64,000 nt of DNA from Escherichia coli (GTDB lineage Bacteria; Pseudomonadota; Gammaproteobacteria; Enterobacterales; Enterobacteriaceae): assembly GCF_030013205.1 (NCBI RefSeq), contig NZ_CP122648.1; one strand, given 5' to 3'. Position numbers: made by a program. Shown here piece by piece: positions 33,001-36,000 of the stretch. The first letter of the stretch is position 1. Each line of letters begins with the position of its first letter.

Positions 33001-36000
33001 AGACTATCAGCCCGCAAACAACAAATGCGATGGCTGCGGTGAGATACATCACTTTAAAACTAAATCCCATTGCCAGCTCATAAGCGAGCGGTGGCCCGAT
33101 AACCCAGGCAAGCGAGATCTGAGCACGTAAAAATGTACTGAACATGACCGTCTCACGGCCTGTTCTGTCGGCGTGTTCACGGGCGAGGGCGAACATTTGC
33201 GGGTTTGCAGTGGAAGCAAAACTACTCAGAAGTACGCCCGTAGAGAGGAGAATGAAGTAGTTGCGATTCCACGCAAAAAGCGTGCAGGCCAGCACTCCAA
33301 ATAAGCAACATAGCAGAATCAGTAATTTACGGTCGCCTTGTTTATCGGAGTGCCTTGCCAGAAATTGACTGACCAGAATTCCCATAATAGCGCTACCGGT
33401 GAAGAAAAAACCTACCATTATAGGACGAGCTTTCAGTTCATCTGCGAGGAATATACTTAAGGTGGGAGTCTGGAGAGCGCCCGCAATACCAGTCAGAAAG
33501 GCGACAAGTAAAAATGCCGCGGCAGTGAGATCAAGTATTTTTGATGGAGTGGTAGCCGTTTTTTGCATTCTTCTGAATCACCGGGCGACAAAATATAACT
33601 GAGTTACAAATAAGTACCAGTCGAATGAGTATTGTATTAAGAATTTTTGAGTATCGCTGATACAACCAGAAAGCAATGCTAGCGCAATATTATAGGGCCA
33701 GCAATTGAGATTATTAGCAAAAGCATGTTAAGAATTAATCACCGAATTTATATATTAATTATAGTAAGGCAATGAGCTATTTTTGATAGTAAAAATAAAA
33801 CAAGTTGATTTGATATATTAAATGAAAAAATTAATCTTGATGACAGTCTGATTATTGGTGAAGTTTACAGGTCAGTTTTTTTCGCCAGCGGTTAAAGGAA
33901 TAGAATAGTCGTATAAAAAAGGGTGTTATGGAGCGTGTAAAACAATATCTTCACCTTAATGGCGATACAGTTGGCTGTGAGCCAGCAGGGGGCAAATCAC
34001 CTGCAAATAAACACGGCACATGCTGGCGCGCATATCGCGGATGCGTTCGAGGACAGAAGAACCGACAGGCGGATTCTTCAGCAGCTCATCGTCCATCACA
34101 AAACCTTTGACCAGGTATTTCTGAAGCCGATTGAATATTGAGCAGTAGAAAATATCTGGATTGACAGTATTACGAGGGGTTGGAGAACGTATGAAGAGGC
34201 AAATTGGCGGAAGATCACAGGAGTCGAACCTGCCCGGGACCGCTGGCGGCCCCAACTGGATTTGAAGTCCAGCCGCCTCACCGGAGACGACGATCTTCCG
34301 CGCCTCGATTGCTACATGGAGGCGGGGCGCATTATAGCTACTTCCTTGAGTTTCTACATCCCCCAGATCAGTTTTTTCCGCCTAATACACGCAGCGTATT
34401 ATCACGAAAGCATTATAATTCATATAAAACCCATATTTTACAATGATATATGAGCGGAATTAACGCTACCACGATCACATAAAACAAGAATCATAAATTA
34501 ATAACCAGATATCGGAATATTCGCTCTCACAGGGATGGTTTACAAAATGCGTTATCGGTCTCAGCACCTGGATTTGCCCCTATATTTCCAGACATCTGTT
34601 ATCACTTAACCCATTACAAGCCCGCTGCCGCAGATATTCCCGTGGCGAGCGATAACCCAGCGCACTATGCGGATGCCATTCGTTATAATGCTCGAACGCC
34701 TCTGCAAGGTTCTTTGCTGCCGTTAACCCGTCTGGTTTGGGCATGATACTGATGTAGTCACGCTTTATCGTTTTCACGAAGCTCTCTGCTATTCCGTTAC
34801 TCTCCGGACTCCGCACCGCCGTGTTCTTCGGTTCAAGTCCCAACATCCGGGCGAACTGGCGTGTTTCATTAGCCCGGTAGCATGAACCATTATCCGTCAG
34901 CCACTCCACTGGAGACGACGGAAGATCGTTGCCGAAGCGGCGTTCCACCGCTCCCAGCATGACGTCCTGTACTGTTTCACTGTTGAAGCCGCCGGTAGTC
35001 ACCGCCCAGTGCAGTGCCTCACGATCACAGCAGTCCAGCGCGAACGTGACACGCAGTCTCTCTCCGTTATCACAGCAGAACTCGAACCCGTCAGAGCACC
35101 ATCGCTGATTGCTTTCTTTCACGGCCACTCTGCCTGTATGTGCCCGTTTCGATGGCGGTACAGCAGGTTTTCGCTCAAGCAACAGCGCATTCTGGCGCAT
35201 GATCCGGTAAACACGTTTGGCATTGATCGCAGACATACCATCAAGTTCTGCCTGTCTGCGAAGCAGCGCCCATACCCGACGATAACCATACGTGGGCAGC
35301 TCTCCGATAACATGGTGTATACGGAGAAGCACATCCGTATCATCAGTGTGACGACTGCGGCGGCCATCCATCCAGTCATCGGTTCGTCTGAGAATGACGT
35401 GCAACTGCGCACGCGACACCCGGAGACAACGGCTGACTAAGCTTACTCCCCATCCCCGGGCAATAAGGGCGCGTGCGCTATCCACTTTTTTGCCCGTCCA
35501 TATTCAACGGCTTCTTTGAGGAGTTCATTTTCCATCGTTTTCTTGCCGAGCAGGCGCTGGAGTTCTTTAATCTGCTTCATGGCGGCAGCAAGTTCAGAGG
35601 CAGGAACAACCTGTTCTCCGGCGGCGACAGCAGTAAGACTTCCTTCCTGGTATTGCTTACGCCAGAGAAATAACTGGCTGGCTGCTACACCATGTTGCCG
35701 GGCAACGAGGGAGACCGTCATCCCCGGTTCAAAGCTCTGCTGAACAATTGCGATCTTTTCCTGTGTGGTACGCCGTCTGCGTTTCTCCGGCCCTAAGACA
35801 TCAATCATCTGTTCTCCAATGACTAGTCTAAAAACTAGTATTAAGACTATCACTTATTTAAGTGATACTGGTTGTCTGGAGATTCAGGGGGCCAGTCTAG
35901 CACCCCTATAGCATCAAGGAAAAGCAGATGAAGAGTGAAGTGTTGTCCGTTAAAGAGAAAATTGGTTATGGCATGGGAGACGCCGCCAGCCACATTATTT

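Follow-up and report, generated by a model that had tools for sequence, protein, structure and literature searches.

The published layout of the insertion sequence IS2 comprises a 41-bp right inverted repeat (IRR), a 42-bp left inverted repeat (IRL), the A6G site, the promoter PIRL and an OrfA operator at positions 39–48 (PMC3299598). PIRL is a weak inward promoter located just inside IRL, and OrfA, by binding to IRL positions 39–48, represses transcription there (PMC3299598). IS2 insertions in gal cause Rho-dependent polarity (reference 46, as cited in PMC12095673), and upstream of ampC and acrEF the same element has given rise to hybrid promoters. Here we describe an IS2 insertion in front of the yicJI operon of a porcine Escherichia coli. 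The best explanation as a whole, to which we give a probability of roughly 70%, is a simple IS2 insertion that most likely reduces or silences yicJI via Rho-dependent polarity; the structure of the locus was observed directly, and the effect on expression is what we infer from it.

The DNA analysed is a stretch of 64 kb (the window) from strain ETEC4079, a pig isolate from Belgium, and its first 50 kb are identical to ETEC4079 NZ_CP122643.1 32001–82000. A K-12 context, suggested by the neighbouring setC and selC genes, was accordingly rejected. Exact-match searches for both IS2 termini located a single, complete copy of 1331 bp on the minus strand at 34569–35899. Each terminus occurred once in the 64 kb, with 0 occurrences expected by chance: the IRR terminus TGGATTTGCCCC begins at 34569, and the IRL terminus TAGACTGGCCCCC, read on the minus strand, reaches its end at 35899. 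At one junction the pentamer GCACC (34564–34568) gives way to the right end of IS2, TGGATTTGCCCCTATATTTCC; at the other, the sequence up to 35899, GGAGATTCAGGGGGCCAGTCTA, is IRL in reverse complement and is followed by a second GCACC (35900–35904). The two pentamers are the left and right copies of the target-site duplication. This duplication is not a matter of chance, because ETEC1701 and K-12, which have an empty site, each have the pentamer GCACC here only once. The initiation codon of yicJ is at 35928, 28 nt from the end of IS2, with five of these nucleotides belonging to the duplicated pentamer. The sole native upstream DNA left on yicJ is therefore the 23 bp at 35905–35927 (plus strand), which include the Shine-Dalgarno sequence AAGGAA (35916–35921). 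All of the native upstream DNA beyond it, including the predicted σ70 promoters and the H-NS region, has been shifted 1336 bp away from yicJ.

A sequence-only reading of this DNA had proposed a complete, 1331-bp IS2 with an intact 5-bp duplication in the selC–yicJ spacer, 28 bp ahead of the yicJ start codon, with insCD transcribed away from yicJ and yicJI cut off from its native upstream sequence. Each part of that description held: both termini were matched and no internal lesions were found, the two pentamers are identical, every coordinate was correct, both element ORFs lie on the minus strand and yicJ on the plus strand, and just 23 native base pairs precede the ATG. Comparison with the uninterrupted selC–yicJ interval, which that reading had named as the way to check it, gave in both ETEC1701 and K-12 an empty site with one GCACC. 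We regard the structural part of the explanation, namely the structure, integrity and orientation of the element, the empty site and the strain distribution described below, as near certain.

All features of the published IS2 architecture (PMC3299598) are present in this copy. IRR occupies 34569–34609 (41 bp, minus strand; an inverted repeat was detected, and its length is given after PMC3299598) and IRL 35858–35899 (42 bp, minus strand). The insC (orfA) gene, at 35443–35808 on the minus strand, encodes the 121-aa IS2 repressor/TnpA, a protein identical to that of K-12, while insD (orfB), at 34580–35485 on the same strand, encodes the 301-aa DDE catalytic part of the transposase. The programmed −1 frameshift site A6G (AAAAAAG) lies at 35485–35491 (minus strand); within IS2 this is coordinate 409, the position that it also has in K-12. 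OrfA scored 276.4 bits against the NCBIfam IS2 TnpA model (cut-off 229) and OrfB 724.1 bits against the TnpB model (cut-off 597); Pfam found HTH_Tnp_1 (PF01527) in OrfA, and rve (PF00665), rve_3 (PF13683) and HTH_21 (PF13276) in OrfB. The features by which IS2 is recognised were thus all found: 41/42-bp ends, two overlapping open ORFs with A6G, matches to the domain models, and a 5-bp duplication with a one-copy empty site. RefSeq labels the element an 'IS3-like element IS2 family transposase', with 'programmed frameshift'.

Relative to IS2A of K-12 MG1655 (NC_000913.3 381260–382590), 4 of the 1331 nucleotides differ. The differences at element positions 606 and 900 are silent, that at 667 causes the sole substitution in OrfB (P85S), and the fourth is A32G in IRL. 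This last change (IS2 coordinate 32, window position 35868) is a lineage-specific A>G within the protein-binding part of IRL. With so few differences and no lesion, the element is not the old, degraded copy that would have spoken against a recent insertion. Judged by its sequence, the copy looks intact and transposition-competent, and identical IS2 copies were found at different loci in sister genomes.

The distribution of the insertion was examined with a 2.7-kb query spanning IS2, searched against 5426 complete E. coli genomes. The insertion was recovered in one piece in seven of them: ETEC1748, 4067, 4069, 4070, 4071, 4079 and K_EC180. The six ETEC strains are from Belgian pig faeces and matched the query at 100% identity. 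K_EC180, which matched with a single 1-bp gap, is a Stx2e-producing weaner-pig isolate from Korea, sequenced with PacBio and Illumina by a laboratory other than that of the Belgian genomes. EC130 and Eco_23-3571, with at least 80% query coverage, were considered as independent insertions and rejected, as their IS2 lies in setC or in a selC island and not in the spacer. A 500-bp selC–yicJ stretch was uninterrupted in 5400 of 5424 E. coli genomes, and outside the seven carriers it was interrupted in at most 17 genomes, a figure obtained by counting only. The insertion is thus a rare, lineage-specific event and the spacer is not a hotspot.

The site is empty in the sister strains ETEC1701, ETEC4068, ETEC4075 and CFSAN018748. 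Removing IS2 and one pentamer from the window leaves a sequence that matches ETEC1701 without a difference across 1365 bp. Over 50 kb, ETEC1701 differs from the window by 8 SNPs and ETEC4068 by 7 SNPs and one 13-bp indel. A perfect copy of this IS2 allele was found in 14 records only, all from the pig ETEC/O139:H1 group and including empty-site sisters, so plausible donor copies existed in the lineage. Since carriers occur in both Belgium and Korea, the insertion did not arise within one strain but dates from before the sub-clone spread. The sequence-only reading had called the transposition simple and probably recent, and this is borne out by a distribution of 7 in 5426 within one clone, together with near-identical sisters that have the exact empty site and carry the same allele elsewhere. 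The event is a simple, lineage-specific transposition in one pig ETEC/STEC clone. A literature search on IS2 and yicJ returned no mention of this insertion, only an unrelated DH5α paper, and a search by strain names returned the K_EC180 genome announcement alone.

These junctions could also be accounted for by misassembly, or by a rearrangement between two IS2 copies (an inversion or a deletion, for example) that left the element behind as a scar. Misassembly is a general hazard of IS copies; no support specific to this locus was found. An artefact is contradicted by identical junctions in seven independent complete assemblies and, in particular, by K_EC180, whose origin in a separate Korean laboratory means that the insertion is not an assembly artefact. 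A rearrangement is at odds with the collinearity of both flanks with empty-site strains and K-12, and with the perfect 5-bp duplication, as recombination between different copies would normally break such a duplication. The chance that either account is correct is negligible.

What the insertion removed from yicJ was assessed with a promoter search in two stages, a strict σ70 promoter and terminator scan followed by a relaxed position weight matrix (PWM) scan in which random windows served as background. Neither the filled site (34200–36000) nor the empty site gave a σ70 promoter or an intrinsic terminator in the strict scan. In the relaxed PWM scan of the reconstructed empty spacer, all yicJ-directed σ70 candidates lay upstream of 34568. 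The best predicted candidate was TTTTCC-17-TATTAT at 34374–34402; another was TTATCA-18-TATAAA at 34399–34428. These displaced candidates (34374–34428, plus strand) are now about 1.5 kb from the yicJ ATG. The yicJ/selC spacer contains a SELEX site of RpoD holoenzyme that was flagged for H-NS, and the two promoter strings listed for it include TTATCA-18-TATAAA (Shimada 2014, PMC3946193). On reading of the sequence, this last string is predicted to be directed toward yicJ. We found no mapped yicJ transcription start site in the literature, and the promoters named here are predictions. The 23 native base pairs that remain before yicJ are too short for a promoter. The spacer has a G+C content of 41%, compared with 53% for IS2. 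An Rfam scan of 34000–36200 (E ≤ 1) matched tRNA-Sec alone, so no known RNA element was disrupted.

The proposed course of events is as follows. IS2 inserted by copy-out/paste-in into GCACC, 24–28 bp upstream of the yicJ start, in the ancestor of a small porcine ETEC/Stx2e E. coli sub-clone. This placed IRL and the weak inward PIRL beside yicJ, with insCD running toward selC. The 23-bp native leader with its Shine-Dalgarno sequence stayed on yicJI, and all of the native promoter and regulatory DNA came to lie 1336 bp further upstream. Transcription starting at the native promoter would then have to pass through 1.3 kb of IS2, giving antisense RNA that is C-rich and not translated; Rho is expected to stop it there, and the most likely outcome is that yicJI is strongly reduced or silenced. 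In that case the insertion would amount to a regulatory polymorphism with loss of expression, one that is probably neutral or under mild selection in the clone.

Several observations bear on this course of events. The element lies between all of the native promoter candidates and the first gene of the operon, which is the arrangement expected of a polar insertion. Using the C/G ratio in 78-nt windows as a heuristic for Rho loading, we found a ratio above 1 in 80% of the 78-nt windows on the plus-strand RNA across IS2, compared with 35% in the 64-kb window overall. The read-through RNA would thus be C-rich and G-poor, a composition that favours Rho loading. Of the two outcomes named in the sequence-only reading, silencing or expression driven by IS2-derived signals, reduction or silencing is favoured because IRL, which lacks the known outward −35 of IS2, is the end beside yicJ, and because no credible hybrid promoter was found.

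The effect of IS2 on yicJI could also be of the opposite sign. The left end of the element might supply an outward promoter, whether one that diverges from PIRL or one formed jointly with the flanking DNA, in which case yicJI would be expressed constitutively and freed from H-NS control. The relaxed PWM scan did find weak, outward-facing σ70-like pairs within 90 bp of the IRL end, the best on the IRL side being TTAAGA-17-GATACT (35841–35869, score 6.6), followed by TTCTCC-18-TAGTAT (35812–35841, score 5.6). In the IS3 family, proto-promoters are over-represented at the element ends, and an estimated 26% or so of the elements have outward promoters (PMC12095673); yicJ has kept its native Shine-Dalgarno sequence, and removal of a spacer flagged as H-NS-bound (PMC3946193) could de-repress the operon. 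However, the known outward −35, from which the junction promoter of IS2 and other IS3-family elements is formed, sits in IRR, which here faces selC (PMC9330008; PMC3299598), and hybrid promoters form where IRR abuts a gene with a flanking −10 at about 17 bp, while it is IRL that abuts yicJ. The best outward score of 6.6 falls below 6.9, the median of the best scores obtained in random windows of 300 nt, and the strict scan of 34200–36000 was empty. No promoter spanning the junction at the IS2/yicJ boundary appeared in the relaxed PWM scan. Within the retained flank a single hexamer resembles a −10, TATAGC (35907–35912); it is paired with a poor −35 (TTCAGG) and would start transcripts within the Shine-Dalgarno sequence. 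Finally, OrfA binding at IRL positions 39–48 represses transcription there (PMC3299598). Activation from the left end is therefore unlikely.

Alternatively, the insertion might have no effect, with transcription from the native promoter crossing IS2 into yicJI at a near-normal level. This is compatible with the lack of an intrinsic terminator on either strand of 34200–36000 and with yicJ and yicI being intact in every carrier. Against it, the RNA would be a typical Rho substrate, with 1.3 kb of untranslated sequence that is rich in C and poor in G; it would be antisense to insCD transcription; and Rho-dependent polarity is the classical behaviour of IS2 insertions (reference 46, as it is cited in PMC12095673). 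We consider such read-through improbable, and reduction or silencing of yicJI by polarity remains the preferred reading.

The other end of the element faces selC, the gene for tRNA-Sec (34205–34299, minus strand; ARAGORN and Rfam RF01852, 83.8 bits), which has the same direction as insCD, a point not raised in the sequence-only reading, and lies 270 bp beyond the IRR end. Transcripts leaving the element through IRR would run into the promoter region of selC. They are nevertheless unlikely to affect selC, because PIRL is weak and repressed by OrfA (PMC3299598) and because selC has its own TATAAT. As read from the sequence, this TATAAT is followed by a GC-rich discriminator, at about 34325–34340. 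In the flank on the IRR side, GGTGCTGA, no −10 hexamer facing selC was found at a spacing of 16–18 bp from the element. Adjoining the 3′ end of selC is a fragment of a rhuM gene (33998–34126, minus strand), with the yicT pseudogene at the corresponding K-12 position. This fragment is probably a relic of an island formerly integrated at selC; there is no island at selC now, and setC is directly next to it.

On the yicJ side, both genes of the operon are intact. The yicJ gene (35928–37310, plus strand) encodes a 460-aa xyloside transporter of the GPH/MFS_2 type and yicI (37320–39638, plus strand) a 772-aa GH31 α-xylosidase. Both are fully intact in all seven carriers, with no sign of decay, although none is yet expected on the time elapsed. 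YicJ of ETEC4079 has the private substitution M321I (G>A at 36890), found in this strain only among the 5426 genomes, and the six other carriers have the common allele; as a single change, it is too little for arguing relaxed selection. Strains deleted for yicJI are reported to reach a lower density in stationary phase and to compete less well (Reperant 2011, summarised in PMC11157272). Right after yicI lies a frz-like carbohydrate operon (39933–46876, plus strand), which contains a BglG-family antiterminator, PTS IIA, IIB and IIC components, two aldolases, a ROK kinase and a lyxose/mannose-type isomerase, and is one that has been linked in the literature to ExPEC fitness.

Further loci were noted elsewhere in the window. 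Between ilvN and uhpA are two adjacent hypothetical genes of 431 and 485 aa (1837–3132 and 3386–4843, plus strand), which had no match in Pfam or PADLOC and, in NCBIfam, just blaLAP at 16 bits against a cut-off of 600. Genes for a RelE/ParE-family toxin and an HTH antitoxin (14015–14675, minus strand) lie between yicN and nepI. An island between nepI and yicS (16294–29723) contains the inverse autotransporter air/eaeX, annotated as frameshifted, the HilA-like regulator eilA, and type III translocon and chaperone genes of IpaD/SipD-like, YopB/SseC-like and SycD/LcrH-like types; in ETEC4068, a 13-bp deletion (window 27798–27810) frameshifts the SipB/YopB-like gene. A 288-aa hypothetical gene (51627–52493, plus strand), located right after gltS and overlapping the end of recG, had no match in Pfam, PADLOC or NCBIfam.

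It is conceivable that the insertion was adaptive, by turning yicJI off or by turning it constitutively on from an outward promoter at the left end of IS2. If so, xyloglucan-oligosaccharide use would be altered along with the yicJI fitness phenotype, and the insertion would have aided the intercontinental spread of the Stx2e/ETEC sub-clone; we hold this to be very doubtful. The insertion is a routine strain-level polymorphism of a textbook element, already known in kind, and adds no new element, mechanism or gene. It is of little consequence outside strain typing, where its junction gives a clean, PCR-testable marker of one porcine ETEC/Stx2e sub-clone. Carriers and their empty-site sisters also form a natural pair for asking whether yicJI has a role in the pig gut.

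The element itself is most like IS2A of K-12, with which it shares a length of 1331 bp, 1327 of 1331 nucleotides, the same 41-bp IRR and 42-bp IRL termini, an identical OrfA and a 5-bp duplication. It differs from IS2A in its four point differences, in the confinement of its allele to the 14 records of the pig lineage, and in its genomic site. In its relation to the neighbouring operon it resembles the classical polar gal mutants: IS2 lies between the control region and the first gene of the operon, insCD is antisense to the operon, and the crossing RNA would be untranslated and C-rich; at yicJ the polarity is a prediction. The geometry here is presumably that of the classical IS2 'orientation I'. 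The hybrid-promoter cases of ampC (Jaurin & Normark 1983) and acrEF have in common with yicJ the same element immediately upstream of a gene. In those cases, however, it is IRR with its outward −35 that abuts the activated gene (PMC9330008), whereas here IRL abuts yicJ. The placement of this IS2 matches that of the classical polar-insertion mutants and not that of the hybrid-promoter activators.
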